From the NCBI GenBank assembly GCA_964016885.1, contig OZ024753.1, positions 14,260,001-14,324,000 on the forward strand: a DNA stretch of 64,000 nt, read 5' to 3'. The stretch comes from Eledone cirrhosa (Eukaryota). Position numbers and translations under genes: made by a program. Below the pieces are notes generated by a model. The model made no database searches. It saw only the letters and a list, made by a program, of their open reading frames with translations, and was not told the DNA's origin. Shown here piece by piece: positions 7,602-57,581 of this stretch (position 1 is its first letter; each line of letters starts with the position of its first letter).

Positions 7602-7796
7602 GTTCGTGAGAAATCCAGTCAGTTGTCAGCCTATTTCAGTCTTATAGAGAACACTATCAAGTTTTTGGTAAGCAGTGAAGAAGGGCCTCCATTTGATCCC
7701 AACCAAATTATTCAACTATATTCAATCCTTACAGAGACACTCAAGTGTGTCATTTTATTTCTACAAGAGATAAATAAATCATTGCAGTCTTTCCAG
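7602..7796 (+). CDS. NCDN: NCDN exon 4 (VREKSSQLSAYFSLIE...LQSFQ)
   Basis: attgtag acceptor, cag|gtatgt donor, 195 nt, phase 0-0. Confidence 0.88.
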
Positions 7797-10700: not shown

Positions 10701-11150
10701 TGAATATATGTACATGTGTGTATATATGCAGTCTTTCCAGGTATGTATATAATTGTGTGTGTGTATTTATGTATATAACGTGTGTGTGTGAATATATGTA
10801 CGTGTGTGTATATATGCAGTCTTTCCAGGTATGTATATAATTGTGTGTGTGTATTTATGTATGTATTTATGTATATAACATATGTTTGTGTGTGAATATA
10901 TGTACGTGTGTGTATATATGCAGTCTTTCCAGGTATGTATATAATTGTGTGTGTGTATTTATGTATATAACGTGTGTGTGTGAATATATGTACGTGTGTG
11001 TATATATGCAGTCTTTCCAGGTATGTATATAAATGTGTGTGTGTATTTATGTATATAACATGTGTGTGTGTGAATATATGTACGTGTGTGTATATATGCA
11101 GTCTTTCCAGGTATGTATATAATTGTGTGTGTGTATTTATGTATATGTCT
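7783..11150 (+). repeat. ~85-100-bp minisatellite beginning in NCDN exon 4 (unit contains tgcagtctttccag|gtatgt)
   Basis: About 37 copies read directly; explains the HTYI/VCVY ORFs. Confidence 0.95.
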
Positions 11151-11564
11151 GTTAGTGTGTAGGTGAATGTATGTATTTTTGTACATGTGTGTGTGTGTAT
11201 ATGCCATCTAACCAGGACCAGAATGTAAATAAGAATTTATGTATATAATGTGTGTGTGAGCTGCTACTTCGAATAAATTGGTGTGGGGTAGAGAAGTCCC
11301 CCAAGTCCAGTAAGACAACTTTCTTAGTCCTGGTGGCATGAATAAAAGCACCCGGTCCATGCTGTAAAATGGAGGGGTAGAGAGGTCCTCTGAGTCCAGT
11401 AAGACGACCTCTCTGGTGCTGGTGGCACGAATAAAAGCACCCAGTCCATGCTGTAAAGTGGTGCTGGTGTTAGGAAGGGCATCTAACCAGTATATATACC
11501 ACTGCCAAAAACTATGAGCACAATGAGAATTGCAACAACTGCGTAAACAGCAACAACACTAACC

Positions 11565-12630
11565 ATGCTGTCAGTAAAGTGAGAGTAGGAATGGAGTTTA
11601 ATGAAGAATTCCAGATACAAGTAGGAGTACATCAGGGTTCGGTCCTCAGCCCGCTCTTGTTCATTATAGTCCTCCAAGCCATAACAGAGGAGTTTAAGAC
11701 TGGCTGTCCATGGGAACTTCTCTATGCTGACAATCTGGTTCTTATAGCAGAATCAGTAGAGGAGCTAGAGAATAAATTCTGGCTATGGAAACAGCAGTTG
11801 GAAGCAAGAGCACTGAGAGTGAACCTAGCTAAGACAAAAGTGTTGATGAGTAGAAAAGAGGACAAAACTCTGATTCCATCAGGGAAATGGCCATGTTCGA
11901 TATGAAGAAAAGGAACTGGTATAAATTCTATAAAATGTACGCAATGCAGATCTTGGGTACACGAGATGTAGTGGGATAGCAGGCAAACTAATAGGTAGGG
12001 AGAAATACGTATGGAGTAGATGTACAGGGAAATTAGACAGTAGTAATCGCAGTGATAGACACATTTTTCAAATGCAGGAGGGTTCTATAGAAGTGGTTGA
12101 TAGCTTCTGGTTCCTAGGTGATCAGATTAGCGTAGGAGGGGGGGGGGGGGGTATTCCGAGGCCATAGTATCTGGAATAAGGACAGGTTGGAAGAAGTTTA
12201 AGGAACTGCTTCCTCTGTTGACAAAAAAGGGTTTCCCCCTGCGTATGAAAGGCCTGCGATGGCTGGAGAGAAATGAAGCAAGCATGCTCCGTTGGATGTG
12301 CAATGTCAATGTGCGTGAACGACCAAGCATAGATGAGTTGAGAAAGAAACTGGGTATAAGAGGGATAAGTTGTAGTGTGCGGGAGAGAAGACTGCGATGG
12401 TATGGACATGTGATGCGCATTGAGGATGACTGCTGGGTAAAGAAATCCCAGTAGAACGAAGACGCAGTAGAGGAAGGCCACGAAAAACATGGGTGAGAAC
12501 AGACCTCAGATCACTGAAGCTCACGGTGGAGATGATGAAGGACCGTGACAAGTGGAGAGATGCTGTGCTGAATAGGACCCGTCCCACCCTTGCAAGCAGG
12601 GAAAAGCGGACGTAAAATGATGATGATGAT
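11565..12630 (+). mobile_element. 5'-truncated RTE LINE (RT 3' half to tail)
   Basis: GVHQGSVLSPLLF, LYADNL, GKWPC; (GAT)n tail; nearly identical to part of 18570-20390. Confidence 0.9.
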
Positions 12631-13815: not shown

Positions 13816-14365
13816 GGCAGTGAATTGGCAGTTAGAACATTAGACAGAACAATTTACAGTATCTGTTCAACCCATGCTAGTGTGGAAGATGGACATTAAA
13901 GGATGATGATGATGATGATTCTCCTCTCTCTGCTCTCCGAGTTCAAATCCCGCCCAGGTTAATTTTGTCTTTCATCCTTACAGGGTCGATGAAAAAATAT
14001 CAGTCCAGTGTTGATACGGACATGTGATGTGCATGATAGGGTTGGACAGGTCTATAGAGACAGTCAGTACTGAAGCAGGGCTACTGGTCTCCCAGGCCAG
14101 GGATCTGCATCTCACAACATACAGTTTCATTCATTCTACCAAGTGTACAGGAGAGGTTGTTATGTCTTTGATCCAACAAACAAGCATGGACGAGTTGAGA
14201 GTGAAACTGTGTTATAAGAGGGATAAACTGTAGTGTGCGGGAGAGAGGACTGCATTGGTATGGCTATGTGATGCGCATGGAAGATGACCACTGGGTGATG
14301 AAGTGCCAAGAAATCTCGGTGGAAGGAAGACACAGTAGAGGAAGACCATGGAAATCATGGGCGGA

Positions 14366-15044
14366 GCTAAGTATCAACATCTGTTGGTCTTACCTAACTG
14401 TCAACATCTGTTGGTCTTAGCTAAGTGTCAACACCTATTGGCCTTAGCTAACTGTCAACATCTGTTGGTGTTAGCTAACTGTCAACATCTGTTGATCTTA
14501 GCTAACTGTCAACATCTATTGGTCTTAGCTAAGTGTCAATATCTGTTGGTCTTAGCTAAGTGTCAACATATGTTGATCTTAGCTAAGTGTCAATATCTGT
14601 TGGTCTTAGCTAAGTGTCAATATCTGTTGGTCTTAGCTAAGTATCAACATCTGTTGGTCTTAGCTAAGTATCAACATCTGTTGGTCTTAGCTAAGTGTCA
14701 ACACCTATTGGGCTTAGCTAACTGTCAACATCTGTTGATCTTAGCTAACTGTCAACATCTGTTGGTCTTAGCTAAGTGTCAACATCTGTTGGTCTTAGCT
14801 AACTGTCAACATATGTTGTTCTTAGCTAAGTGTCAACATCTGTTGTTCTTAGCTAACTGTCAACATCTGTTGATCTTAGCTAACTGTCAATATCTGTTGG
14901 TCTTAGCTAAGTGTCAACATCTGTTGGTCTTAGCTAAGTGTCAACACCTATTGGTCTTAGCTAAGTGTCAACACCTATTGGTCTTAGCTAAGTGTCAACA
15001 TCTGTTGGTCTTAGCTAAGTGTCAACATCTGTTGGTCTTAGCTA
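14366..15044 (+). repeat. 27-bp satellite, ~25 copies (ttagctaa(g/c)tgtcaacatctgttggtc)
   Basis: Direct reading; the 9-aa QHLLVLAKC period in the ORF track. Confidence 0.95.
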
Positions 15045-17477: not shown

Positions 17478-17690
17478 TGTTGTTATATGTAAATAATCCC
17501 AAGGTTGTTGTTATTATTATTGTGTTGTTATATGTAAATAATCCCAAGGTTGTTGTTATTACTGTTGTGTTGTTATATGTAAATAATCCCACGGTTGTTA
17601 TTACTGTTGTGTTGTTATATGTAAATAATACCAAGGTTGTTATTATTGTGTTGTTATATGTAAATAATACCAAGGTTGTTGTTATTTCCA
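17478..17690 (+). repeat. 39-45-bp tandem repeat x5 running into the NCDN exon 7 acceptor
   Basis: ttgttatatgtaaataat(c/a)cca(a/c)ggttgtt repeated. Confidence 0.9.
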
Positions 17691-17815: not shown

Positions 17816-18569
17816 GTAAGTTTTTTAACAATTATTTTGTCCTACTTCTTCCAGGTCACTATATATCTATCGACAGTCGATTGACTTTCGTCAAATCGGA
17901 CCGAGGAAACAATGTTTTCATTGGTCTTTCCAATTGCTAATACTATCTATCGGTCACAACTCCAGGTAGAAGGAGCAACGTGAAATAAAGTGTCTTGCTC
18001 AAGGACATAACGCATCGCCCGGTCCAGGAATCAAACTCATAGCCTCAAGATTGCGAATCCAATTCTCAAGCCACTCAGCCATGCACCTTCACATATATAT
18101 ATATGTGAAGGTGTCACATATATATATATATATGTGAAGGTGTCACGACAAAAAGTACCCAGCACACTGTAAATGTGGTTGGCGTTAGGAAGTGCATTCA
18201 GCCATAGAAAGCCAGCCCCAAAACACCCAGCCCACACTGTAAAGTGGACGTGTAAAAGACACGGCAAAAAGCACCTAGCACACACTGTCAAGGAAGGGCA
18301 TCCAGCCGTAGAAAACCAGCCAGAAGCTCTCCTACTTGCTTCTAAATGGGACAAACCCGTCTAACCCATGCTAGCATGGAAGATAGATGTTAACCAACGA
18401 AGATGATATATACACATACATACACACAAACATATATATATGTTCTACTTGTAGAATGCATGAAGGAACAATTAGAAACCTGACTTCTTTCATCAGGTGT
18501 TTCAAGAAAATGTTTGTATTTAGTAGATGATGCTCAACTATGTTTATATAACATCAATGGCAGTGTGTC

Positions 18570-20390
18570 AGTGTAAATCAGGATGTTGTTGGAGATAAGT
18601 GTGTCCAAAATGATGCTGGTGTACTTAGTGTCACGAATAATCAGAAAAAGGAGGCCTGGAAATGTCATTATGAGAGACTGATGAATGTGAAGAATGAATG
18701 GAATGGAAGAGAGAGAAATTACCCCAGTAGACCCAAACTAGGGACCAGCTATTAAGATTGATGAATATAGGGTCCAAGAGGCAATTAAGGAAATGAAAAA
18801 TGGTAAGGCTGCTGGACTGTCGAAGATAGTTGCTGAGATGCTGAAGGCATCAGGGAACATAGGCACTAAACTCGTTGACGCATCATCAATCGGGCTATAT
18901 ATGGTGGTGTCATACGCAAAGACTGGTGCAGCAGTATTCTCATAAATCGCTACAAAGTTAAAGGGGATGCTCTGGAGAGGAGCAATTATAGGGGTATAAA
19001 ACTGATGGATCAGGTTATGAAAGTGGCAGAAAGGATATTAGCACAACTAATTAGAGAAAGGGTCAAACTAGATGAGATGCAGTTTGGTTTTGTGCCTGGG
19101 AAAAGTACAACAGATGCCCTCTTCTTGGTGAGACAATTACAAGAGAGGTTCTTAGAGAAAAATAAGCCAATATACTTAGCTTTTGTTAACTTAGAGAAGG
19201 CCTTTGATAGGGTACCCCAATCTGTCATCTGGTGGTCCCTAAGGAAACTAGGTGTAGAGGAATGGCTTGTGAGGACAGTGCAAGCTATGTACAGAGATGC
19301 TGTCAGTAAAGTGAGAGTAGGAATGGAGTTTAGTGAGGAATTCCAGATACAAGTAGGAGTACATCAGGGTTCGGTCCTCAGCCTGCTCTGGTTCATTATA
19401 GTCCTCCAAGCCATAACAGAGGAGTTTAAGATTAGCTGCCCATGGGAACTTCTCTATGCTGACGATCTGGTTCTTATAGCAGAATCAGTAGAGGGGCTAG
19501 AGAATAAATTCTGGCTATGGAAACAGCAGTTGGAATCAAGAGGCCTGAGAGTGAACATAGCTAAGACAAAAGTGTTGATGAGTAGAAAAGAGGACAAAAC
19601 TCTGATTCCGTCAGGGAAATGGCCATGTTAAATATATAGAAAAGGAACTGGCATAAATTCTATAAAATGTACACAATGCAGATCTTGAGTACACAAGAGA
19701 TGTAGTCGGATAGCAGGCAAACTAACAGGTAGGGAAAATATGCAGTAGATGTACAGGGAAATATGACAGTAGGGTCGCAATGATAGACACATTTTTCAAA
19801 TGCAGGTGGATTCTATAGAAGTGGTTGATAGCTTCCGGTACCTAGGTGATCAGATTAGCATGGGAGAGGGGGTGTTCCTAGAATAAGGACGGGTTGGAAG
19901 AAGTTTAGGGAGCTGCTTCCTCTGTTGACAAAGAAGGGTTTCTCCCTGCGTATGAAAGGCCTGTTATATGATGCCTGTGTGAGATGCGCGATGCTGTATG
20001 GTAGTGAGACATGGACAGCAACTATAGAGGATATGCGACAGGTGGAGAGATATGAGGCAAGCATGCTCTGTTGGATGTGCGTGAATGACCAAGCATAGAT
20101 GAGTTGAGAGAGAAACTGGGTAAAAGAGGGATAAGTTGTAGTCTACAGGAGAGAAGACTTGAGATGGTATGAACATGTAATGCGTATGGAGGATGACCGC
20201 TGGGTAAAGAAGTGCCAAGAAATCCCAGTTGAAGGAAGACATAGTAGAGGAAGACCACTAAAAGCATGGGCGGAGGTGGTGAGAACAGACCTCAAATCGC
20301 TGAAGCTCACAGAGGAGATGACCAAGGACCATGACAAGTGGAGAGATGCAAGCAGGTAAAACCGGATGTAAAATGATGAGGATGATGATG
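18570..20390 (+). mobile_element. RTE LINE, degenerate RT with Cys-rich (PHD-like) insert and 3' tail
   Basis: NYRGIKL, QFGFVPGKST, FVNLEKAFD, HQGSVLS, YADD; stops and frameshifts. Confidence 0.93.
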
Positions 20391-21064
20391 AATGGCCTTT
20401 CATGATATTGTGAGATTTAGTATATTGAATAAATGATGAAATATGGGAGATAACTTCAAAAGTACCAAGCAATGAAACAACCATAACAAACATTTTAAGT
20501 CTAATTTCTTGGCTAAAGCATGACGGCCTTCTCCATTTTGTTTTATCATCTGATTCCCTCTTCACAAATCCCTGGCTTTCATCTCCTTCTTTCATCTTCA
20601 GCCATGTCTATCTTGGTCTTCCTTTACTTTCTTCTACATTCATTTCTATCTCTTCTTTTGTCACCTTGATCCTTCCTAAACACATGACCTAGCCATCTCA
20701 TTACAAAAAAGGACCTCATAATGAGTATATAACATGTACCAAACTCGAGGAAAAAAATTTTTAAGGTTACTTCCTATTGTCTTCAATCTTTTACTTTACT
20801 TCACTGCGGGGTTTTTTTTCTGTCTTATTACCTTGGCATTTTTACCAAATAAGGATTGTTGGGCTTCCAAATAAACAAACGTATTGTATGTTTGTATTTG
20901 CATTTCATATCATCATCATCGTTTAACATCCATTTTCCACGTTACCATGGGTTAAACGGGTTGTCCCATTAGAGGCAAGTCGAGTCAGGTGACCATGTCT
21001 TGTTCATATGTAACTGTTTCTGGCTACGTTTCTATAGCTGGATGCCCTTCCTAACACCAACCAC

Positions 21065-21890
21065 ATTTACAGTGTGGATTGGGTGCTTTTTATTGTGACA
21101 GCTACATGACCACTTTATAGTGTGGACTGGGTGCTTTTTGTTGTGACACCTACAAGACCAATTTACAGTGTGGGCTGGGTGCTTTTTGTTGTGACACCTA
21201 CATGACCAATTTACAGTGTGGGCTGGGTGCTTTTTGTTGTGACACCTACATGACCAATTTACAGTGTGGGCTGGGTGCTTTTTGTTGTGACACCTACACT
21301 TACCCAATTACACCTCTCAAAGGCGATGACACGCGACCGTGACCTCTGGCGTCACGCAGTAATACAGAGTACCCGACCTCCCATGGGTACAAGCTGAAGC
21401 AATAGACAATATGCCCCACACCCTCCCACTGCAAAATGGTCGTGGAGGTGCCACGGCAAAAAAGCACCCAGCCCACACTGTAAAGTGGACGTGTAGGCGC
21501 CACAGAAAAAAGCACCCAGCACTCATTGTAAATGAGGTTGGTGTTAGGAAGGGCATCCAGCCGTAGAAATCAAGCCAGAATCAGTTCCTGTATGAGCAAG
21601 GCATGGTCAGCCGACCAGACACTGCCCACAACAGGACAACTCGTCTAACCCATGCTAGCATGGAAGAACGGATGTAAAACGGTGATGATGATGATGATGA
21701 CCTACATGACCAATTTACAGTGTGGACTGGGTGCTTTTTGTTGTGACACCTACATGACCACTTTAGAGTATGGAATGGGTTTTTTTTATTGTGACACCTA
21801 CATGACCACTTTATAGTGTGGAATGGGTGCTTTTTATTGTGACACCTACATGACCAATTTATAGTGTGGACTGGGTGCTTTTTGTTGTGT
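21065..21890. repeat. 48-bp SINE-derived tandem array interrupted by a SINE insertion
   Basis: cagtgtgggctgggtgctttttgttgtgacacctacatgacc units on both sides of 21300-21700. Confidence 0.8.
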
Positions 21891-22069: not shown

Positions 22070-22209
22070 GTAAGTTGCTCCCCTTCTCATGTGAACACTT
22101 TAAACTGATTACCATCACAGACTTCTCTATTGAACACAACTAATTACCATCACAGTCTTCTTTATTGAACACAACTGATTCCTCTTAGGCCCAGTTTTTC
22201 TTTCAACAT

Positions 22210-23261
22210 TTAGCTAAGGCATATAGATGTTGACAGTTAGTTAAGACTCATGGATCTTGACATATTAGCTAAGACCAACAGATGTTGACAGTTAGCTAAG
22301 ACCAATAGATGTTGACAGTTAGCTAAGACCAATAGATGTTGACAGTTAGCTAAGACCAATAGATGTTGACAGTTAGCTAAGACCAACAGATGTTGACACT
22401 TAGCTAAGACCAATATATGTTGACACAACACTTAGCTAAGACCAATAGATGTTGACACTTAGCTAAGACCAATAGATGTTGACAGTTAGCTAAGACCAAT
22501 AGATGTTGACAGTTAGCTAAGACCAACAGATGTTGACACTTAGCTAATACCAATATATGTTGACACGACACTTAGCTAAGACCAATAGATGTTGACAGTT
22601 AGCTAAGACCAACAGATATTGACACTTAGCTAAGACCAATAGATGTTGACACTTAGCTAAGACCAATAGATGTTGACAGTTAGCTAAGACCAACAGATGT
22701 TGACACTTAGCTTAGACCAATAGATGTTGACACTTAGCTAAGACCAATAGATGTTGACAGTTAGCTAAGACCAACAGATGTTGACACTTAGCTAAGACCA
22801 ATAGATGTTGACAGTTAGCTAAGACCAATAGATGTTGACAGTTAGCTAAGACCAACAGATGTTGACAGTTAGCTAAGACCAATAGATGTTGACAGTTAGC
22901 TAAGACCAATAGATGTTGACAGTTAGCTAAGACCAACAGATGTTGACAGTTAGCTAAGACCAATAGATGTTGACAGTTAGCTAAGACCAATAGATGTTGA
23001 CAGTTAGCTAAGACCAATAGATGTTGACAGTTAGCTAAGACCAATAGATGTTGACACTTAGCTAAGACCAATAGATGTTGACAGTTAGCTAAGACCAATA
23101 GATGTTGACAGTTAGCTAAGACCAAACATATGTTGACAGTTAGTTAAGACCAATAGATGTTGACAATTAGCTAAGACCAAACATATGTTGACAGTTAGCT
23201 AAGACCAATAGATGTTGACTAAGACCAAACATATGTTGACACATTAGCTAAGACCAACAGA
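22210..23261 (-). repeat. Same 27-bp satellite in reverse orientation, ~38 copies
   Basis: ttagctaagaccaa(c/t)agatgttgaca(g/c) is the reverse complement of the 14366-15044 unit. Confidence 0.95.
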
Positions 23262-39859: not shown

Positions 39860-41271
39860 CTGAATAATAAAAAACAAGTTATAGTTAATATAAAGCATGG
39901 AGATGTTATAAAAGAGCTTCTAAAATATGGTGAAGACTCTTAAAGACAAAAGAAGTTGCCAGCAGCTAAATTAAATAGCTGATTCGCAGCCCTTAACCCT
40001 TTAGCATTTAAACCAGCCATATGTGGCCAGAATTCTGTCACCTCTTTCTGTTCAAACCAGCTGTAATAACTGGCTACTGATGTTAAGGTATTGTTCTCAA
40101 AATAAATAAGTTCAACATTATGTGAGATAATGCAAGTGTTTTCCATGAAAATACATAGTAAATATAGAGTAATGTAAATACTAAAGGGTTAAAGACCAGT
40201 CTATTGTTGTTAATTACTTAAGTGTCAAAGATATTCTATCTAAAGGAATTGTGGTGATAAGCTGGCAGGAATGTCTCAAATTATTTAAACCTGCCTTATC
40301 CAGCCAGAATTCTCTCACCTCTTTCTGTTCAAAACTGGCCAAGTTTACTTTTAGTCAGGCCTAAACCATTTACTCAAAATATACTTCTTCTCATGGAGAC
40401 AACCGCCAAGGCAATCAAGCTGTGTGTTGAAGTAGTGTTTATCTGAACTACATACCATTTTTCAGAATTACAAAGTTGACAAAATCTCGACCTATTCACG
40501 TAGGTGGTAGATCTTTCTAATAACCTCCACTTGATGGGAAAAGGTATGCCTTAATTTGTGAGCTGGGTGGCATGTTTTTTGTCAGGATATCTGAAGGTTG
40601 TTTCATGATTCAGGTACTGGTTTTTAAACCGGCTTTTGGACATAACAACATAGGTCCAGGCTTCTGGCTGGTGGAGGTAACCTCTGCTTGGTATATCACT
40701 GCAGGAGTATTGTACTGTTGGTCTAGTGGACATGTTTCAGGTCTTCTACATGAGCATCTATACAGTGGAGGGCTATATTTTTCTCATACCTTCCATTCTC
40801 TCATTGTTTCTATGGCTAGATTCCATTCCTAATGCCAACCACTTCAGAACATGTAGTGTGTGTGTTTTATTATGGCACTTCCACTATTACCTAACAGGGT
40901 GGAAGGAGTGTTTTTTAAGGTGGCACTAGCACTACCATTTTACAGAGTATATTGGATGCATTTTATTATGGCATCAGCACTACCATTTTACAGAGTGTAT
41001 TGGATGCATTTTATTATGGCATCAGCACTACCATTTTACAGAGTGTACTGGGTGTGTTTTATCATGGCATCAAGCACTACCACTTTACAGAGTGCACTGG
41101 GTGTGCTTTATCATGGCATCAAGCACTACCACTTTACAGAGTGTACATTAGCACTACTACTTTACATACTTCTTTTCCTATTTAAACAGCTTTCTAGACC
41201 AAACAGTAGAACCAAGTGTCAGTGAGTGAACGAGGTTTATTATGTGTCATAAAACCAAACCAATACAATAC

Positions 41272-41408
41272 CTTATCTGTAGGTTTCAAAAGTTCTTCTA
41301 CATCTTGTTTCTCCTCGTCTGTAACCTCAGTATTATTTAAAGATTCTAAATATCTCAAGCTGCAGAGAACGTCTATACGGAACTCCTCTTCTCGAGATAC
41401 TGGAGTAT
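41272..41408 (-). CDS. LRRC23: LRRC23 exon 7, LRRcap region (DTPVSREEEFRIDVLCSLRYLESLNNTEVTDEEK...TDK)
   Basis: aatacag acceptor, aag|gtattg donor, phase 1-0; LRRcap-like 'P.....YR..V...L..L..LD...VT.EE'. Confidence 0.88.
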
Positions 41409-41599
41409 CTGTATTGATGAAAAATAGGAATAACTAGAAATAGGTTAAAGAATCTAGTATAGTTTACATAAAGTATTGTGAAATATATGTCTACAGTTTT
41501 TATGAAATATGTGATATATATGGCAACAGGTTATGCGAAATATGTGATATATATATATATATATATATAAGATCAAAAGATGGTTAAAAGAGTTCCATG

Positions 41600-41672
41600 T
41601 ATTTTATTATGTGCATTTCAAAAACAAATATCATCATGGGATAATATTTTTTTGTTCTCATCAGATAAAATA
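41600..41672 (-). ncRNA. Type I hammerhead motif
   Basis: tattttat-CTGATGA-gaacaaa...tttgttttt-GAAA tgcac ATA-ataaaata; perfect 8-bp stem I. Confidence 0.62.
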
Positions 41673-43228
41673 GGGAGACATGATATGAAGCTTAAAATAT
41701 ATATATATAGTGAGTTAGAAACTCTGAGTAGTCTCTCACAGCTCTAAGAAAAAATCTTTTCTGAGCTGTGTAATATAATTGAATAAACAAGAGAGATGAA
41801 CACTAATATAAACATACATGTGTTCGAATCGTAAGGACTAGTTTTGCTAGGGTAAAAAAATACTAACTACAGCAATATGGTTTGTCAGACTTAAATTTAA
41901 GTAGTAAATTATTATTAATTTACTACTTAAAATTAAGTCTGACAAACCATATTGCTGTAGTTAGTATTGTTTCACCCTACCAAAACAGTCTCTTGTTTAT
42001 TCAATTATATATATATATATTAGAAAGTGAGGTTTTTTTACAAAATGAAAAAAAAAACAAGGTGTCCTACACGAGTGAAAGTATAAGGAAAAAAGATGAA
42101 ATTGAAAATGCAACTGGAGTCTTTTTTTTTTTAAATATATATTTATTTGGTTCCTCTACCGGTTTAGCAGTTCTTCTGCTTTTCAAAAGTAGATTTGAGA
42201 TGGAGGGTTTGTGGTTTTTCTCACATCTGGTTGGTGTTTGAATGTTACTTCTGTTTTATATGGAAAAAAGTGGCTTGAAATGCTAGGTTTTTAGAGAAGT
42301 AATTTGGTTGGTTGGTGAATAAGTGTAATAAATTTTGCGCCAGTTCGCATTACAAAGTTCTTATATTTGCCTTCAGGTTGTTTTTTCATATATGAGTGAA
42401 ATTTGGTTGGTTGATGCAGAATCAGCTTTGTGTATATATATATATATATACACACATACATATCCCTCTCTTTCTCTCTGTATATATCATCATCATCATC
42501 ATCTTCACCGTTTTACATCCATTCTTTCACGCTAGCATGGGTTAGATGGGTTGTCCTGTTGTGGGCAGTGTCTGGTCGGCTGACCTTGTCTTTGCTCATA
42601 TGGGAACCGATTCTGGCTTGATTTCTACAGCTGGATGCCCTTCCTAACACCAACCTCATTTACAGTGAGTGCTGGGTGCTTTTTTTCCGTGGCGCCTACA
42701 CGTCCACTTTACAGTGGGCTGGGTGCTTTTTTCCCGTGGCACCTACACGTCCACTTTACAGTGTGGGCTGGGTGCTTTTTTCCCGTGGCACCTACACGTC
42801 CACTTTACAGTGTGGGCAAGGTGCTTTTTTCCTGTGGCACCTACACATCCACTTTACAGTGTGGGCAAGGTGCTTTTTTCCTGTGGCACTTACACGACCA
42901 CTTTGCAGTTTGAGGGTGTGGGGGCATATTGTCTATATGCTTCAGCTTGTACCTGTGGGGGGTTGGGTCTTCTGTATTACTGCGTGATGTCAGAGGTAAC
43001 GGTCCTGTGTCATCGCCTTTGAGAGGTGTAATTGGGTAAGGTCGGCTTTTATCACACACTTTACCCACACTGTAAAGTGGACGTGTAGGCGCCACGGAAA
43101 AAAAGCATCCAGAACTCACTGTAAATGAGGTTGGTGTTAGGAAGGGCATCCAGCTGTAGAAATCAAGCCAGAATCAGTTCCCATCCCACCCTTGCAAGCA
43201 GGGAAAAGCGGACGTAAAATGATGATGA

Positions 43229-43266
<38 letters not shown>

Positions 43267-43938
43267 AAATTTGAAACTGAACTTTTCATATACCCACTCT
43301 ACTACCCCAAGTATTGAGTACTCTGGTGAGTAATAGTCTATCACTTCCATTCTGACATATTTCCCCTGTACAACAAGAAGACCAAATTATCACATTATAA
43401 ATAATAATAATGAAATTATTGTGTACAGTGCTCAGGTGCACTACAACTCATCAAAGGTACATGTACAGTACATAGAATAATGTACAAATGTCAGGAAAAT
43501 GATCAGCGTGTGTATGGAGGGGGGATATTAGACAAGATCTCATATATGACATATATATATGTTTGATGATAACTAAACTAGCAGACATAGAATATCTATG
43601 TCCTATACTGGTTGAACTTTGAAATCTTAGGTAGCATGCATTTGTGTTGAGATCTTATTCATATAATATATTTTGTCTCTGCACATTACATAGAGTGCTT
43701 TTCTTTTATTTGTTCCCACAATAAAAAGCACCCAGTCCACATTGTAAATGTGGTTGGCAGGAAAGGCATTCAGCTATAGTAATCAGGCCAGAAACAGTTC
43801 TGTATGAGCAAGACACAGTCATATAAAATTTTTATAAAACTATGACCCTTTAATTTTCTATAATGGGACACACTGAAGCCTGTATCTAATGTGGCTACCC
43901 AGTTGGGTTAACTGTAGCAGCGGCCCTAGGTGGCTTAC

Positions 43939-44015
43939 CATTTAAAAACAAAATTGTAAGACTTGGCAAAGTGGACAGTTTGATCACTTCAGACATTTCC
44001 TCAATGATATTCTCT
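43939..44015 (-). CDS. LRRC23: LRRC23 exon 6 (ENIIEEMSEVIKLSTLPSLTILFLN)
   Basis: tatttcag acceptor, g|gtaagc donor, phase 2-1. Confidence 0.9.
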
Positions 44016-44116
44016 CTGAAATAGAAAAGAAAAGGAAAATAAACTGACTTAATGGTAAATATTTAAAGTGGCAAGGGTTGTGTTGTGATAACATGCACCA
44101 AGTACACTCTGTAAAG

Positions 44117-44545
44117 TGGTGGTGGTAGTGTAGTTGGCGGCAGTGGTAATGGAGGTGGTGTTAGTAGTGGTATTGGAGGTGGTGTTAGTGGGGGTATTGG
44201 AGGTGGTGTTAGTAGTGGTATTGGAGGTGGTGTTAGTGGTGGTGGTATTAGTAATGGTATTGGAGGTGGTGTTAGTAGTGGTATTGGAGGTGGTGTTAGT
44301 GGTGGTGGTATTAGTAGTGGTATTGGAGGTGGTGTTAGTAGTGGTATTGGAGGTGGTGGTATTAGTAGTGGTATTGGAGGTGGTGTTAGTAGTGGTATTG
44401 GTGGTGGTGTTAGTAGTGGTATTGGTGGTGGTGTTAGTAGTGGTATTGGTGGTGGTGTTAGTAGTAGTATTGGTGGTGGTGTTAGTAGTAGTATTGGTGG
44501 TGGTGTTGGAGGTGTTATTAGTAGTGGTGTAGGTTGTAGTTGTGC
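44117..44545. repeat. GGT/AGT/ATT trinucleotide mosaic
   Basis: Direct reading. Confidence 0.9.
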
Positions 44546-44594
44546 TATAAATGATGGAAAAGTAGAAGAAGAAAATGAAAGCCAACGAAATATT

Positions 44595-44727
44595 GTATGG
44601 AAACCCTACCTGAGGTCAATGTATGGAAACCCTAAGTGAGATCAATGTATGGAATCCCTTCCTGAGGTCAATGTATGGAAACCCTACCTGAGATCAATGT
44701 ATGGAAACCCTACCTGAGATCAATGTA
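44595..44727 (-). repeat. 26-bp repeat x5 of the LRRC23 exon 5 end + donor
   Basis: tacattga(t/c)ctcag|gtagggtttcca. Confidence 0.92.
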
Positions 44728-44850
44728 CTTCAGTTGTTTTAACTTGGAATGAAAGCCTTCCAGATCATCAATCATATTGTTATTTAGCTCCAATACTTCT
44801 AAATTGACCAGGTCTGAAATCCACTCAGTGTGGAGAATCTTATTGAAACC
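44714..44850 (-). CDS. LRRC23: LRRC23 exon 5 (GFNKILHTEWISDLVNLEVLELNNNMIDDLEGFHSKLKQLKYIDL)
   Basis: tttttcag acceptor, ag|gtaggg donor, phase 0-2; LxxLxLxxN repeats. Confidence 0.92.
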
Positions 44851-47800
44851 CTGAAAAACAGAGAATAAGGAGGTGCTGACCAGTGACCAATGAAAGACAG
44901 AGAATAAGGAGGTACTGACCAGTGACCAATGATAGACAGAGAATAAGGAGGTACTGACCAGTGACCAATGAAAGGCATGGCATAAGGAGGTGCTGACCAG
45001 TGACCAATGATAGACAGAGAATAAGGAGGTACTGACCAGTGACCAATGAAAGGCATGGCATAAGGAGGTGCTGACCAGTGACCAATGATAGACAGAGAAT
45101 AAGGAGGTGCTGACCAGTGACCAATGATAGACAGAGAATAAGGAGGTACTGACCAGTGACCAATGAAAGGCATGGCATAAGGAGGTGCTGACCAGTGACC
45201 AATGATAGACAGAGAATAAGGAGGTGCTGACCAGTGACCAATGAAAGGCATGGCATAAGGAGGTGCTGACCAGTGACCAATGAAAGGCATGGCATAAGGA
45301 GGTGCTGACCAGTGACCAATGAAAGGCATGGCATAAGGAGGTGCTGACCAGTGACCAATGAAAGACAGAGAATAAGGAGGTGCTGACCAGTGACCAATGA
45401 TAGACAGAGAATAAGGAGGTACTGACCAGTGACCAATGAAAGGCATGGCATAAGGAGGTGCTGACCAGTGACCAATGAAAGGCATGGCATAAGGAGGTGC
45501 TGACCAGTGACCAATGAAAGACAGAGAATAAGGAGATGCTGACCAGTGACCAATGATAGACAGAGAATAAGGAGGTACTGACCAGTGACCAATGATAGAC
45601 AAAGAATAAGGAGGTACTGACCAGTGACCAATGAAAGGCATGGCATAAGGAGGTGCTGACCAGTGACCAATGAAAGGCATGGCATAAGGAGGTGCTGACC
45701 AGTGACCAATGAAAGGCATGGCATAAGGAGGTACTGACCAGTGACCAATGAAAGACAGAGAATAAGGAGGTGCTGACCAGTGACCAATGATAGACAGAGA
45801 ATAAGGAGGTACTGACCAGTGACCAATGATAGACAGAGAATAAGGAGGTACTGACCAGTGACCAATGAAAGGCATGGCATAAGGAGGTGCTGACCAGTGA
45901 CCAATGAAAGGCATGGCATAAGGAGGTGCTGACCAGTGACCAATGAAAGAGAGAATAAGGAGGTACTGACCAGTGACCAATGAAAGGCATGGCATAAGGA
46001 GGTGCTGACCAGTGACCAATGAAAGGCATGGCATAAGGAGGTGCTGACCAGTGACCAATGAAAGGCATGGCATAAGGAGGTGCTGACCAGTGACCAATGA
46101 AAGAGAGAATAAGGAGGTGCTGACCAGTGACCAATGATAGACAGAGAATAAGGAGGTACTGACCAGTGACCAATGATAGACAGAGAATAAGGAGGTACTG
46201 ACCAGTGACCAATGATAGACAGAGAATAAGGAGGTACTGACCAGTGACCAATGATAGACAGAGAATAAGGAGGTACTGACCAGTGACCAATGATAGACAG
46301 AGAATAAGGAGGTACTGACCAGTGACCAATGAAAGGCATGGCATAAGGAGGTGCTGACCAGTGACCAATGAAAGAGAGAATAAGGAGGTGCTGACCAGTG
46401 ACCAATGATAGACAGAGAATAAGGAGGTACTGACCAGTGACCAATGATAGACAGAGAATAAGGAGGTACTGACCAGTGACCAATGATAGACAGAGAATAA
46501 GGAGGTACTGACCAGTGACCAATGATAGACAGAGAATAAGGAGGTACTGACCAGTGACCAATGATAGACAGAGAATAAGGAGGTACTGACCAGTGACCAA
46601 TGAAAGGCATGGCATAAGGAGGTGCTGACCAGTGACCAATGATAGACAGAGAATAAGGAGGTACTGACCAGTGACCAATGAAAGGCATGGCATAAGGAGG
46701 TGCTGACCAGTGACCAATGATAGACAGAGAATAAGGAGGTACTGACCAGTGACCAATGAAAGGCATGGCATAAGGAGGTACTGACCAGTGACCAATGATA
46801 GACAGAGAATAAGGAGGTGCTGACCAGTGACCAATGAAAGGCATGGCATAAGGAGGTGCTGACCAGTGACCAATGAAAGGCATGGCATAAGGAGGTACTG
46901 ACCAGTGACCAATGATAGACAGAGAATAAGGAGGTACTGACCAGTGACCAATGATAGACAGAGAATAAGGAGGTACTGACCAGTGACCAATGAAAGGCAT
47001 GGCATAAGGAGGTGCTGACCAGTGACCAATGAAAGGCATGGCATAAGGAGGTGCTGACCAGTGACCAATGAAAGGCATGGCATAAGGAGGTGCTGACCAG
47101 TGACCAATGAAAGAGAGAATAAGGAGGTGCTGACCAGTGACCAATGATAGACAGAATAAGGAGGTACTGACCAGTGACCAATGAAAGGCATGGCATAAGG
47201 AGGTGCTGACCAGTGACCAATGAAAGGCATGGCATAAGGAGGTGCTGACCAGTGACCAATGAAAGAGAGAATAAGGAGGTGCTGACCAGTGACCAATGAT
47301 AGACAGAATAAGGAGGTACTGACCAGTGACCAATGAAAGGCATGGCATAAGGAGGTGCTGACCAGTGACCAATGAAAGGCATGGCATAAGGAGGTGCTGA
47401 CCAGTGACCAATGATAGACAGAGAATAAGGAGGTACTGACCAGTGACCAATGAAAGGCATGGCATAAGGAGGTGCTGACCAGTGACCAATGATAGACAGA
47501 GAATAAGGAGGTACTGACCAGTGACCAATGAAAGGCATGGCATAAGGAGGTGCTGACCAGTGACCAATGAAAGGCATGGCATAAGGAGGTGCTGACCAGT
47601 GACCAATGATAGACAGAGAATAAGGAGGTACTGACCAGTGACCAATGAAAGGCATGGCATAAGGAGGTGCTGACCAGTGACCAATGATAGACAGAGAATA
47701 AGGAGGTGCTGACCAGTGACCAATGAAAGACAGAGAATAAGGAGGTACTGACCAGTGACCAATGAAAGGCATGGCATAAGGAGGTGCTGACCAGTGACCA

Positions 47801-47986
47801 ATGATAGACAGAGAATAAGGAGGTGCTGACCAGTGACCAATGAAAGACAGAGAATAAGGAGGTACTGACCAGTGACCAATGATAGACAGAGAATAAGGAG
47901 GTACTGACCAGTGACCAATGAAAGGCATGGCATAAGGAGGTACTGACCAGTGACCAATGAAAGGCATGGCATAAGGAGGTACTAAC
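44851..47986 (-). repeat. 39-bp (some 37-bp) satellite, ~80 copies, forming the whole of LRRC23 intron 4
   Basis: 13-aa periodic ORFs; array begins at the donor GT and ends at the acceptor AG. Confidence 0.95.
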
Positions 47987-48111
47987 CAGTGAAAGTGTTG
48001 TCAGACTTGGTATGTTGATTTTTTCAATATACTCAAGAAGATTTGATGAAGCTTTGAGAGTTGTGAGATGAGGAGATCCCTTTAACTGGGACAGGTCCCT
48101 GATTTTATTGC
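47987..48111 (-). CDS. LRRC23: LRRC23 exon 4 (GNKIRDLSQLKGSPHLTTLKASSNLLEYIEKINIPSLTTLSL); not in the ORF track
   Basis: ccattccag acceptor, ctg|gttagt donor, phase 1-0; two LRR units. Confidence 0.9.
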
Positions 48112-49117
48112 CTGGAATGGAAGAAAGTCAGCAAATTGATTTGTGTGTGTGTTGGAGGAGGGGGGGGGAGTATGTGGATGTGTTTGTGTGTATGTGTGTG
48201 GGGAGTGTGTGTATGTGTGTGGGGATATGTGGATGTGTGTGTGTGTGAGTATGTTAGACCTCTCTTGGTTCTGATGTTCAGGGTTCCAGTTGTTTGAACA
48301 ACAGAACAGCATTCTCGTGAAATTAACGTGCAAGTGACTGAGCATTCTGCAGACACATCACTGTTACAGTCACTCTCTCAGGAGTTTTCAGTGTGACACG
48401 CCATGTGACATGGCTGGCCCTTTCAATAATTTACACATATATAACTCATTTTTGCCAAGTTGTGTGGACTGGAGGGACATGAAGTAAAGTATTTTGCTCA
48501 AGGAGACAACAACCTGGAATCAAACTCACGACTTTATAACTGTGAACCAAACACATTAACCACTGAGTCACATGCTTTCACAAATGGCAAATTTACGCAC
48601 ACAGCAAGAGCAACGCCCTGACCACCTACCAACATATTCTTAACCCACCATTGGTGTCTTGAATGGACCCCATGGTAGTTTCGACGACAAGTCTTTCTTC
48701 CAGTTGTTTGATAAATACAACAACCTTCTGAAATTAATGTGGCTGAGTATTCCACAGATACATGTAACTGTAATGCAATATTTTTCAGGGAAGACTGAAT
48801 GTGGCACAGTGGTTGACAAAGCTGGCCCTTTGAATTACATGCATAGTCCATGTAGCAGGCTTTCAAACAGTTTCAGGTCAACCAAATTTCACACACATGT
48901 CTTGGTTTAGCCTAAGCTGCCATACAGTGGAGTCAAACTCGGGACCCAATGTTTGTCAAGTGAACATCTTTACCGTTCAACAATTTTGCACCAACCACTA
49001 ACACCTGCACCTCCATACCTATACAAGAAGGTGAGTAGTGAAGATAAAAAAAAATTTCACAATATTCACCTCCCACATTGTCATGAAATGAAACAAAAAA
49101 TATGAACTCATACTTAC

Positions 49118-49374
49118 CACTGATGTCAATAAACTTAATAATTGGGTGAGTTAATCCCTCAGAAATGTCCACAATCCTGTTAGAACCAAGGGAAATATAC
49201 TGTAAATAGGAATGGGCCTCAAGAGCAATTTTTTCAATGCTGTTTCTGTCTGCTTTCAGGAATAATAAATTTGGCAAGAAGTTGAGAGGACTTAGATCTG
49301 TGAATTGGTTGTGACTAATATCAACAATTCTCAAATGGATATATTTCTCCAGAATGTTGAAACTGTTGAGTTCC
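49118..49374 (-). CDS. LRRC23: LRRC23 exon 3 (ELNSFNILEKYIHLRIVDISHNQFTDLSPLN...KFIDIS), proximal acceptor
   Basis: ttcccag acceptor, g|gtaagt donor, phase 2-1; matches 'YIHLRYVDIS.N.LTDLSPLN.L..LL.LKAD.N'. Confidence 0.93.
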
Positions 49375-50372
49375 CTGGGAAATAAGAGAGGTAGATATAA
49401 ATTGATATATTTCTCCAGAATGTTGAGTTCCCTGGCAAATAAAAGAGGTAGATATAAATTAATATATTTCTCCAGAATGTTGAGTTCCCTGGGAAATAAG
49501 AGAGGTAGATATAAATTGATATATTTCTCCAGAATGTTGAAACTGGTGAGTTCCCTGGGAAATAAAAGAGGTAGATATGAATAGATATATTTCTCCAGAA
49601 TGTTGAGTTCCCTGGGAAATAAGAGAGGTAGATATAAATTGATATATTTCTCCAGAATGTTGAGTTCCCTGGGAAATAAAAGAGGTAGATATGAATAGAT
49701 ATATTTCTCCAGAATTTTGAGTTCCCTGGGAAACAAGAGAGGTAGATATAAATTGATATATTTCTCCAGAATGTTGAAACTGTTGAGTTCCCTGGGAAAT
49801 AAAAGAGGTAGATATGAATAGATATATTTCTCCAGAATTTTGAGTTCCCTGGGAAACAAGAGAGGTAGATATAAATTGATATATTTCTCCAGAATGTTGA
49901 AACTGTTGAGTTCCCTGGGAAATAAAAGAGGTAGATATAAATTGATATATTTCTCCAGAATGTTGAGTTCCCTGGGAAATAAAAGAGGTAGATATGAATA
50001 GATATATTTCTCCAGAATTTTGAGTTCCCTGGGAAACAAGAGAGGTAGATATAAATTGATATATTTCTCCAGAATGTTGAAACTGGTGAGTTCCCTGGGA
50101 AATAAAAGAGGTAGATATGAATTGATATATTTCTCCAGAATGTTGAGTTCCCTGGGAAATAAGAGAGGTAGATATAAATTGATATATTTTTCCAGAATGT
50201 TGAAACTGGTGAGTTCCCTGGGAAATAAAAGAGGTAGATATGAATTGATATATTTCTCCAGAATGTTGAGTTCCCTGGGAAATAAGAGAGGTAGATATAA
50301 ATTGATATATTTTTCCAGAATGTTGAAACTGGTGAGTTCCCTGGGAAATAAAAGAGGTAGATATAAATTGAT
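49375..50372 (-). repeat. 57/66-bp tandem copies of the LRRC23 exon 3 acceptor + exon start
   Basis: ttccctgg recurs 17 times between 49371 and 50337. Confidence 0.95.
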
Positions 50373-51057
50373 TTAGGCAGAAAGCCAATAATTTTGGGGG
50401 AGGGGAAAGTTGATTAAATCCCCACCCTGTGCATTATTGGTACTTTGTTTTATCGACCCAGTAAGGATGAAAGGCAAAGCTAACCTCAGCAGGATTTGAA
50501 CTCAGAACGCACAAAGCATGTTGTCTGACACTCTACCGATATTGCCAATCCACAGCCCTATATAAGTATATAATAATTGTTTAAGAGTAAAGGGTCGTAA
50601 CACCGATGGAGCCCATCTCTCCAGGTTTGAATACAGTCGATTTCTTGAGGGAGGAAATAAGAGGAAGAATGAATCCCAGTACATGACTGGTACTTTTTTT
50701 TATCAACCTCAATGGATGAAAGGCAAAGTTGACCTCAGTGGGATTTGAACTCAAGAGCGCAGAGAGATGGCACGAATACTACAAAACATTCTATATGACA
50801 CACAGATATATATAGAAATGGCTTTTACCGGACTAGAACTGTTTCATTTGTATGAAATCGTCATCATCGCTATTTAACCTCTATTTTCCATGCTTGCATG
50901 GGATGGAGAGGCTGACACGTTAGGAGGTCAGGTGACCCTGTCTGTTCATACATTCCATTTTTGGCTTGGTATTCTATGGCTGGATACATTTTCTAATGCC
51001 AAGCTCATTACAAAATGGTCTGCATGTGTTTTGTTGTGTCACCAATCCCTAACATAA

Positions 51058-51845
51058 CCACCTTATAGAGTAGACTGGATGTTGTGAGACCTATACGACC
51101 ACCTTATAGAGTGGACTGGGTGGCTTTTGTTGTGAGACCTATACGACCACCTTATAGAGTGGACTGGGTGGCTTTTGTTGTGAGACCTATACGACCACCT
51201 TATAGAGTGGACTGGCTGGCTTTTGTTGCGAGACCTATACGACCACCTTATAGAGTGGACTGGCTGGCTTTTGTTGCGAGACATACACGACCACCTTATA
51301 GAGTGGACTGGCTGGCTTTTGTTGCGAGACCTATACGACCACCTTATAGAGTGGACTGGCTGGCTTTTGTTGCGAGACATACACGACCACCTTATAGAGT
51401 GGACTGGCTGGCTTTTGTTGTGAGACCTATACGACCACCTTATAGAGTGGACTGGCTGGCTTTTGTTGCGAGACCTATACGACCACCTTATAGAGTGGAC
51501 TGGGTGGCTTTTGTTGCGAGACCTATACGACCACCTTATAGAGTGGACTGGCTGGCTTTTGTTGCGAGACCTATACGACCACCTTATAGAGTGGACTGGC
51601 TGGCTTTTGTTGCGAGACCTATACGACCACCTTATAGAGTGGACTGGCTGGCTTTTGTTGCGAGACCTATACGACCACCTTATAGAGTGGACTGGCTGGC
51701 TTTTGTTGCGAGACCTATACGACCACCTTATAGAGTGGACTGGCTGGCTTTTGTTGTGAGATCTATACGACCACCTTATAGAGTGGACTGGCTGGCTTTT
51801 ATTGTGAGACCTATACGACCACCTTATAGAGTGGACTGGGTGGAT
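51058..51845. repeat. 48-bp SINE-derived satellite, ~16 copies
   Basis: ccaccttatagagtggactggctggcttttgttgcgagacctatacga. Confidence 0.93.
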
Positions 51846-52455
51846 CTTTTTTCATAGAACCAGCACCAGTTTATGGTCACTAAATTCTACTCACAAGTTA
51901 TTGATCAACCCGAAGCTATAGTAGAAGACACTTGACCAGATGTCACGCAGTGAACCTGAAGACACTTAACCAGATGTCATGCAGTGAACCTGAAACAATG
52001 TCTGCGCCTAATTGGGTAAGACAAAAGGATATATATATATATACACACAGATATACATATATATCCTTTGTATATTGGAGTTGAAGGAGAAGCTGGGCTT
52101 AAGAAGAATTTAAGGTAGTGTACAGGAGAGAAGATGAGATTGGTTTGGACATGTGATGCACATGGACAATTATCGTTGGGTGAAGAAGTACCAGGAAATG
52201 ACAGTGGAAGGAGACCAAGACAGACCTGGACAGAGGTCTGAAACTGACAGAGGTGATGACAAAGGATGGCGATGTGTGGAGAGATGCCATGCTGAGAAGG
52301 ACCCATGGAAAAGTGGACATAAAAACGACGACAATGATGATATATATATATATATTATATTATATGTTACATTAATTAGATAATATTTAATATTACCCAC
52401 ATTATATATATATAGAGATACAATTATATATATATATGTATGTGTATTAACGTAC

Positions 52456-52565
52456 CTATTACTGCAATCAAGTCGAATGTACACATAGGAGAGACTGTCC
52501 CCTATTCTGAAGAGTAAGGATATACATTCATTTATTATGTCTTCTGTCAAAGTATTATTTTCTTG
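52456..52565 (-). CDS. LRRC23: LRRC23 exon 2 (QENNTLTEDIINECISLLFRIGDSLSYVYIRLDCSN)
   Basis: ttttctag acceptor, ag|gtacg donor, phase 0-2; matches 'LTED...GLSLLCKTG.GL.HAYV.L'. Confidence 0.92.
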
Positions 52566-56571: not shown

Positions 56572-57581
56572 TGTCACTCTAATAGTCCCCCAAACAAGAG
56601 ACATGGCCAGCCCATCTATATTTGCTCTTCTTGGTAGTCTCCTCTGTCACTCTAATAGTACCCCTGTTGTCCTCCAAACAAGAGACATGGCCAGCCCATC
56701 TATATTTGCTCTTCTTGATGGTCTCCTCTGTCACTCTAATAGTCCCCCAAACAAGAGACATGGCCAGCCCATCTATATTTGCTCTTCTTGATAGTCTCCT
56801 CTGTCACTCTAATAGTCCCCCTGTTGTCCTCCAAACAAGAGACATGGCCAGCCCATCTATATTTGCTCTTCTTGATAGTCTCCTCTGTCACTCTAATAGT
56901 CCCCCTGTTGTCCTCCAAACAAGAGACATGGCCAGCCCATCTATATTTGCTCTTCTTGATAGTCTCCTCTGTCACTCTAATAGTCCCCCTGTTGTCCTCC
57001 AAACAAGAGACATGGCCAGCCCATCTATATTTGTTCTTCTTGGTCGTCTCCTCTGTCACTCTAATAGTCCCCCTGTTGTCTCTCAAACAAGAGACATGGC
57101 CAGCCCATCTATATTTGCTCTTCTTGATGGTCTCCTCTGTCACTCTAATAGTCCCCCTGTTGTCTCTCAAACAAGAGACATGGCCAGCCCATCTATATTT
57201 GCGCTTCTTGATGGTCTCCTCTGTCACTCTAATAGTCCCCCTGTTGTCCCCCAAACAAGAGACATGGCCAGCCCATCTATATTTGCTCTTCTTGATAGTC
57301 TCCTCTGTCACTCTAATAGTCCCCCTGTTGTCCTCCAAACAAGAGACATGGCCAGCCCATCTATATTTGCTCTTCTTGATAGTCTCCTCTGTCACTCTAA
57401 TAGTCCCCCTGTTGTCCTCCAAACAAGAGACATGGCCAGCCCATCTATATTTGCTCTTCTTGATGGTCTCCTCTGTCACTCTAATCGTCCCCCTGTTGTC
57501 TCTCAAAGAAGAGACATGGCCAGCCCATCTATATTTGCGCTTCTTTATGGTCTCCTCTGTCACTCTAATAGTCCCCCTGTT
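56572..57581 (-). repeat. 84-bp satellite, ~12 copies, derived from an RTE ORF C-terminus
   Basis: 28-aa period KYRWAGHVSCLEDNRGTIRVTEE; flanked by RT remnants. Confidence 0.9.

Follow-up and report, generated by a model that had tools for sequence, protein, structure and literature searches.

The window analysed here is a 64,000-nt stretch of the Eledone cirrhosa genome. It carries a neurochondrin gene and, on the minus strand, a gene for LRRC23, a cilium and sperm-tail protein that is a component of the sperm radial spoke. The LRRC23 gene model consists of six minus-strand exons, which join into a stop-free frame of 281 residues. Exons E2 (52456–52565), E6 (43939–44015) and E7 (41272–41408) are predicted; E3 (49118–49374) is supported by the gene model and by a contig of sequencing run X4, and E4 (125 nt, 47987–48111) and E5 (137 nt, 44714–44850) are also represented in X4 contigs. 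The encoded protein shares 41% of its residues with lungfish LRRC23 (E = 1e-61), and its similarity to named LRRC23 proteins is colinear across the junction between E4 and E5. In a tree of 15 proteins, the model falls inside the starred octopod clade, nearest to one of two Octopus LRRC23 paralogs (54–57% identity; support 92/94, at a node that is not starred). A tblastn search with two LRRC23 proteins located one exon set in the window. Neither E3 nor a three-row alignment, used as queries, retrieved a protein above about 57% over the whole model, which leaves no true ortholog for polarising exon variants; a protein search with E5 alone gave no match among 33 candidates. The top representative match, P0098, is an unrelated bacterial LRR protein and was rejected as a relative. 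The LRRC23 family appears to be duplicated and fast-evolving in octopods (window positions 41272–52565, minus strand), and O. bimaculoides has two LRRC23 genes that are about 49% alike.

The intron between E4 and E5 occupies 44851–47986. Judged by alignment, its position is that of intron 5 of human LRRC23 and is thus old. According to the accessible part of a report on human LRRC23 (PMC10721216), the donor variant c.621+1 of intron 5 is predicted to cause the loss of 136 C-terminal residues, and 136 residues follow the matched junction in both LRRC23 chains to which E5 was aligned (PDB 9d2f_B and 9fqr_Xm). Since the position is common to human intron 5, the repeat that now fills the intron did not create it. 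The same part of that report describes a human family in which male infertility co-segregates with donor loss at this site (PMC10721216); given this and the role of the protein in the sperm radial spoke, mis-splicing could be under selection.

An intron composed of 81 repeat units

The intron is a 3136-nt GT-AG intron of phase 0 on the minus strand that divides exactly into 81 units and contains no unique sequence; 73 of the units measure 39 nt, seven 37 nt and the last 30 nt. Tandem Repeats Finder places the array at 44852–47992 (period 39, 80.9 copies, 91% matches, score 4658), a span that extends slightly into E4, and a 17-nt core motif of the array is matched 81 times in the window, where shuffles predict 0.26 matches. 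The first unit (47948–47986) is of G-type and opens with GTTAGT, the donor that is used. It is followed by 79 internal units (44881–47947), among them the seven of 37 nt, in which G- and S-types are interspersed. The last unit, truncated to 30 nt and of S-type (44851–44880), supplies the pyrimidine tract (14 pyrimidines in 16 nt) and the AG that is used. All 80 units after the first begin with CACTG|GTCAG(T/C), the final letter being T in 36 and C in 44, and each of them thereby carries a decoy donor.

Thirteen distinct unit sequences are present. They have three main variable sites, namely position 6 (T or C), positions 17–23, which separate 36 G-type from 45 S-type units, and position 26. 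In 63 of the 81 units, T accompanies S or C accompanies G (Fisher p = 3.7e-7); no linkage was found between the G/S type of a unit and position 6 of the unit that follows it (p = 0.11). The longest repeated word in the order of units comprises eight units and is present twice, a length reached in 41 of 2000 shuffles. The branch point must sit within the repeat, because the intron contains nothing else; a scan with the branch-point motif yUnAy gives candidate adenines at −16, −34 and −41 from the 3′ end (44866–44891).

A preliminary description of this DNA had given the intron these coordinates, ends and length, and had stated that it holds no unique sequence, that its units mimic the real donor, that its branch point lies in repeat sequence and that the order of its units records a history; the sequence bears these points out, the last of them through the duplicated blocks of up to eight units. 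Its picture of a two-state 39-mer stands as regards the interleaving of G- and S-types, but has to be widened to 13 unit sequences with three main variable sites.

The variant proportions of the array recur in sequencing data. Five unit-variant contigs of DNA run X1, with depths of 275, 230, 39, 31.3 and 208.7 for window word counts of 36, 31, 5, 4 and 27.7, give 7.4–7.8 in depth per assembly copy in every case; X1 may be the source sample of the assembly, and these values are then a check on the assembly, not an independent animal. Four unit-variant contigs of run X2 give 7.3–7.8 per assembly copy. X2 and X3 were each compared with one stretch of the locus. On the E4 stretch, the DNA runs yielded no contig over E4 and X5 not a single read, gaps that carry no weight either way.

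Use of the outer splice sites

Run X4 is small, contains 21% of the words of an exon–intron–exon stretch and matches the exons only, from which it was taken to be an RNA run. In one of its contigs, the end of E3 is followed directly by the first letters of E4; another (depth 3.4) covers E5 at 44714–44851 and continues into the last 20 nt of E4. In this run, which is likely RNA, the outer sites of the array are used, namely its first donor and its last acceptor; each junction is carried by a single contig with a depth of about 3, rare isoforms drop out of contigs and the sample may differ in intron length. The intron is thus a real one and exon 47987–48111 is spliced at both ends, as the preliminary description had held.

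The choice of donor is not explained by sequence strength, since both the used donor and the 36 GTCAGT decoys agree with the U1 consensus at 8 of 11 positions. In predicted accessibility, the used donor surpasses all 36 of these decoys in each of three window settings. The values are small, below 1% for the used donor and below 4% for all sites, with one to four of the 80 decoys as open as the used donor, and the predicted contrast may be a mere edge effect of the first unit. Folding 181 nt of the donor region gives a stability that does not exceed that of shuffled sequences (z = 0.07). At the other end of the intron, the 16 nt before the AG hold 14 pyrimidines at the used site and 9–10 at all 80 internal AGs. 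Full retention of the intron shifts the frame; 22 of the 80 decoys are in frame, with the exon frame open, so the use of a decoy would not always be caught by a stop. The outer sites are probably retained because the cell encounters the first donor before all others or recognises it together with its exon; the weak pyrimidine tracts at internal AGs probably contribute, as do the decoy donors, which are predicted to pair with neighbouring units.

Recursive (ratchet) splicing was considered and rejected. The AG of the unit lies at positions 4–5 and GT occurs at positions 1, 5, 22 and 33, the G of the AG also beginning a GT; this shared G leaves no AG|GT site, and the tracts have 9–10 pyrimidines in 16 nt.

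Short forms and the origin of the array

Another form of the locus is found in a 1017-nt contig present in X1 and X3, the two runs of sample S1 that were compared with this stretch. It consists of a variant exon end, a 32-nt unit, a 30-nt unit and E5, which gives an intron of 62 nt (32 + 30) with both units of S-type and with GTCAGT at its putative donor position. Over 188 nt of E5 and its flanks, the contig shows no difference from the window; at the exon end, 3 of the 32 compared letters differ, with two amino-acid changes. Compared with the Octopus paralog, each form retains one of the two changed residues, so neither exon end is simply ancestral. The three substitutions fall in the last 12 nt of the exon (47987–47998; runs X1, X3 and X6). 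The variant exon end may have arisen when repeat tail and exon exchanged sequence, or it may belong to a recent gene copy.

Run X6, a RAD library from a different study, contributes 87 reads at the locus, which start at one or two places. A 32-nt period is present in 81 of these reads, a 39-nt period in 85 and the same variant exon end in 83. They run through a 32-nt unit, a 39-nt unit and further units, with an S-type unit at the donor end, and stop before E5, which means that this animal has at least three units. The forms observed therefore have 81, two and at least three units, counts whose reading depends on whether the forms are alleles or paralogs and on contig collapse.

The 32-mer of the short form is made of the 23 nt of the intron start and 9 nt that match the exon end in eight of nine letters, the layout known from donor mirages; the last 9 nt of E4 (47987–47995) are the likely source of this unit tail. 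A 5-nt word occurs at the exon end and again at the acceptor, its two copies lying 32 nt apart across a single-unit intron. The 39-mer corresponds to the 32-mer with a 7-nt internal duplication, a feature that had been noted in the window before the comparison with reads. These findings revise the preliminary description, which had described the repeat as a 39-mer and had proposed a short ancestral intron of 69 nt with a G-type donor half. A short form does occur, but with 62 nt instead of 69; its basic unit is the 32-mer; and since both other forms begin with an S-type unit, and both halves of the short form are S-type, the supposed donor-end variant looks derived.

We consider it probable (about 0.6) that the array grew from a 32-nt duplication of the donor in an old LRRC23 intron, by way of a 62-nt state, to 81 units, with splicing at the outer sites. 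The growth from 62 nt to 3136 nt is likely to have been about fifty-fold. Slippage at the 5-nt microhomology between exon end and acceptor would have produced the 32-nt duplication, with the remainder trimmed; the unique sequence of the intron would have been lost except for its last 7 nt, the lost remainder being an assumption of the model. A 7-nt duplication within the unit would have led from 32 to 39 nt, a cluster of substitutions would have given rise to the G-type, and slippage and unequal exchange may have mixed and multiplied the unit variants. We infer that the changes ran from short to long, from 32 to 39 nt and from S to G. A donor mirage, i.e. a tandem copy of the exon–intron boundary, followed by loss of the unique rest is the preferred order of events, because in this order the intron never reaches a length that probably rules out splicing. 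Most likely, the array brings no benefit and is simply tolerated.

An unlikely alternative, which nevertheless has to be weighed, is that the short form is not the pre-expansion allele, being instead a recent LRRC23 copy or a collapsed longer array with little bearing on the ancestor. The 62-nt contig crosses a 34-nt stretch common to the long form, at which the assembler must have discarded a branch, so it may have collapsed a longer array such as that of X6. The depth of the short-form contig (3.6 and 6.5, where the long form has 7.5 and 8.2 per copy), its 3 differing exon letters in 32, the presence of two LRRC23 genes in O. bimaculoides and the X6 reads, in which the same exon end is followed by at least three units and E5 is not reached, are all in keeping with such a reading. 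It is opposed by the identity of E5 and its flanks over 188 nt, by the single exon set that tblastn with two LRRC23 proteins located in the window and by the 32-nt first unit in raw reads, which cannot collapse. The depth of the S-type contig in X1, 208.7 against about 213 predicted from the long form, is a rough sign that few units are hidden.

It is somewhat less likely that the 32-nt duplication acted as a rescue. A deletion would have left an in-frame, stop-free intron of 30 nt, and the duplication would have restored a usable length; as a corollary, selection would forbid collapse to a single unit and bias the array toward growth. In a 30-nt intron, slipping once from one 5-nt microhomology to the other yields exactly 32 + 30, the exon frame is stop-free through the units and no remnant of the deletion is visible, all of which would fit. 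However, the usual minimum size of animal introns exceeds 30 nt, so that the intron required here lies below it, and the end state is the same as that of donor duplication followed by loss of the unique rest, so the present data do not favour a rescue. More doubtful is the extension of this idea by which the whole life cycle of an intron would be seen in one species, a sub-minimal intron of 30 nt having duplicated itself to 62 nt and, unable to shrink to one unit, having been ratcheted upward to more than 3 kb, with donor, tract, branch point and acceptor all drawn from one 23-nt seed. If it were true, the excess of arrays at splice sites described below would be the trace of a process linked to splicing, either mutational or selective, by which octopod introns gain length.

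The 69-nt ancestor of the preliminary description, with a G-type donor half, an S-type acceptor half and an expansion of about 45-fold, is highly improbable. The first unit of the window is indeed G-type and the last S-type, and the two commonest internal units combine the features of the two ends, in line with the association of T with S and C with G given above; 69 nt may have been a late intermediate of the window haplotype. Yet both other forms open with a 32-nt S-type unit and neither is a 69-nt form, and the two halves are copies already, so that 69 nt cannot be the starting point.

More improbable still is a functional array, in which in-frame decoy donors would add blocks of 13 residues to LRRC23, or the array would tune the efficiency of splicing. 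The 39-nt unit preserves the frame, 9 of the 22 in-frame decoys are GTCAGT, with a U1 match as good as that of the used donor, and no stop interrupts the exon frame along the intron; the single junction observed uses the first donor, however, a form with 32-nt units exists and a search of Rfam at the gathering score gave no match in 44500–48300. The remaining two frames are nearly stop-free too (0 and 1 stops), which means that the open exon frame needs no selection, and selection for it was rejected on this ground. That the long array is an artefact of assembly has next to no probability, because the contig depths scale with the assembly counts in five contigs of X1 and four of X2.

Relation to known arrays and to other arrays of the window

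The array works like a mirage, or splice-donor VNTR, which is a known class. Its unit spans a boundary, as shown by the extension of the array into E4 and by the 32-nt unit tail matching the exon end in eight of nine letters; it is a minisatellite of 81 head-to-tail units in which the splice signals recur, with 80 decoy donors; and splicing at the authentic sites is kept, according to one X4 contig with a depth of 3.4, in which minor isoforms would be invisible. Mirage minisatellites are described in amphioxus in the accessible parts of two reports, in Adh3, troponin C, the globins BflGb6 and BflGb9 and PGBD5 (PMC3087553, PMC3902484). As presented there, mirages keep splicing intact and are unstable in length, and their mechanism of origin is called unclear (PMC3087553). 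The amphioxus mirages resemble the array intron in being tandem copies of an exon–intron boundary, in their normal splicing and in the occurrence of several in one gene, and their copy number differs between haplotypes (PMC3087553, PMC3902484). In the examples given in those parts, they cover one boundary, with 3–6 units in the globins, whereas here 81 units reach from donor to acceptor, the array provides the pyrimidine tract and only 6–9 nt of the unit are exonic.

A second comparison is with the 37-bp VNTR in intron 7 of human F7, where, in the portion of the report that was available, the most upstream of several identical and functional donors is used (PMC1557585). As in the array intron, the first unit spans the exon–donor junction and the upstream-most donor is used; the downstream pseudo-donors of F7 are potentially functional, and those of the array may be so too. 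The F7 array has 5–9 donors identical in sequence; by contrast, all 80 decoys here depart from the used donor at +3 and 44 do so at +6 as well, and the array reaches the acceptor. Like MVR arrays, as far as an excerpt of one example goes (PMC2363947), the array has at least two similar unit types interspersed and duplicated blocks, but it has a working splice site at each of its ends. Introns gained by tandem duplication, as outlined in the consulted part of another report, likewise consist of duplicated sequence and have their splice sites within the repeat; there, exonic AGGT is duplicated and the position is new, whereas here the unit is mostly intronic and the position old (PMC3443670). 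A gain of the LRRC23 intron by tandem genomic duplication was rejected in view of its old position, the mere 6–9 nt of exon-like sequence in the unit and the E4–E5 junction, which reads CTG|GG.

Within the titles and abstract openings searched, a body of literature with most subscription journals outside it, no intron made wholly of such a repeat was found. Related human cases are CBS, IFI6 and ABCA7, in addition to introns from tandem arrays. The contribution of this case is that the array supplies the whole intron, so that every splicing signal comes from the repeat, and that short and long forms coexist. The presence of 62-nt and 3136-nt forms in one sample provides a natural experiment on the effect that 80 decoy donors and a fifty-fold difference in length have on splicing, and the short form offers a rare view of the starting state of a mirage.

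Two further arrays lie across splice sites of the same gene on the minus strand. The second mirage is a 26-nt array of 5.2 copies across the E5 donor (44594–44727); the X4 contig stops at its first donor, which is therefore the one used. The third is a 57/66-nt array of about 17 copies across the E3 acceptor (49333–50372). Its copies of that acceptor carry 28–37 nt of exon, and in places the frame continues through the unit.

Of 22 splice sites placed in the window (12 in LRRC23, 10 in the neurochondrin gene), six coincide with an end of one of 17 selected arrays, where 1.0 would be expected. When the two sites of the array intron are set aside, 4 of 20 are at array ends (p = 0.012), three strictly inside an array and one beside an array. 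The zones and filters for this count were chosen after the data had been seen, most of the exons are predicted and four neurochondrin exons are off by one base at an end; the excess, roughly fourfold, is a lead.

Several other repeats were observed. An array with a unit of about 89 nt and more than 30 copies of a neurochondrin exon end and donor occupies 7783–11144 (plus strand), and a 45-nt array at 17478–17686 (plus strand) stops 5 nt before a predicted neurochondrin acceptor. Arrays with similar 27-nt units lie in opposite orientation at 14365–15044 and 22206–23219 and could pair in the neurochondrin pre-mRNA. Broken reverse-transcriptase fragments, LINE-like as judged from their ORFs, are present at 18552–20356, 11474–12451 and 56585–57581, and the 84-nt array at 56585 has an open frame built from such a fragment. 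Arrays of 48–49 nt at 21060–21889, 40921–41146, 42659–42909 and 51080–51843 apparently share one common dispersed-repeat unit.
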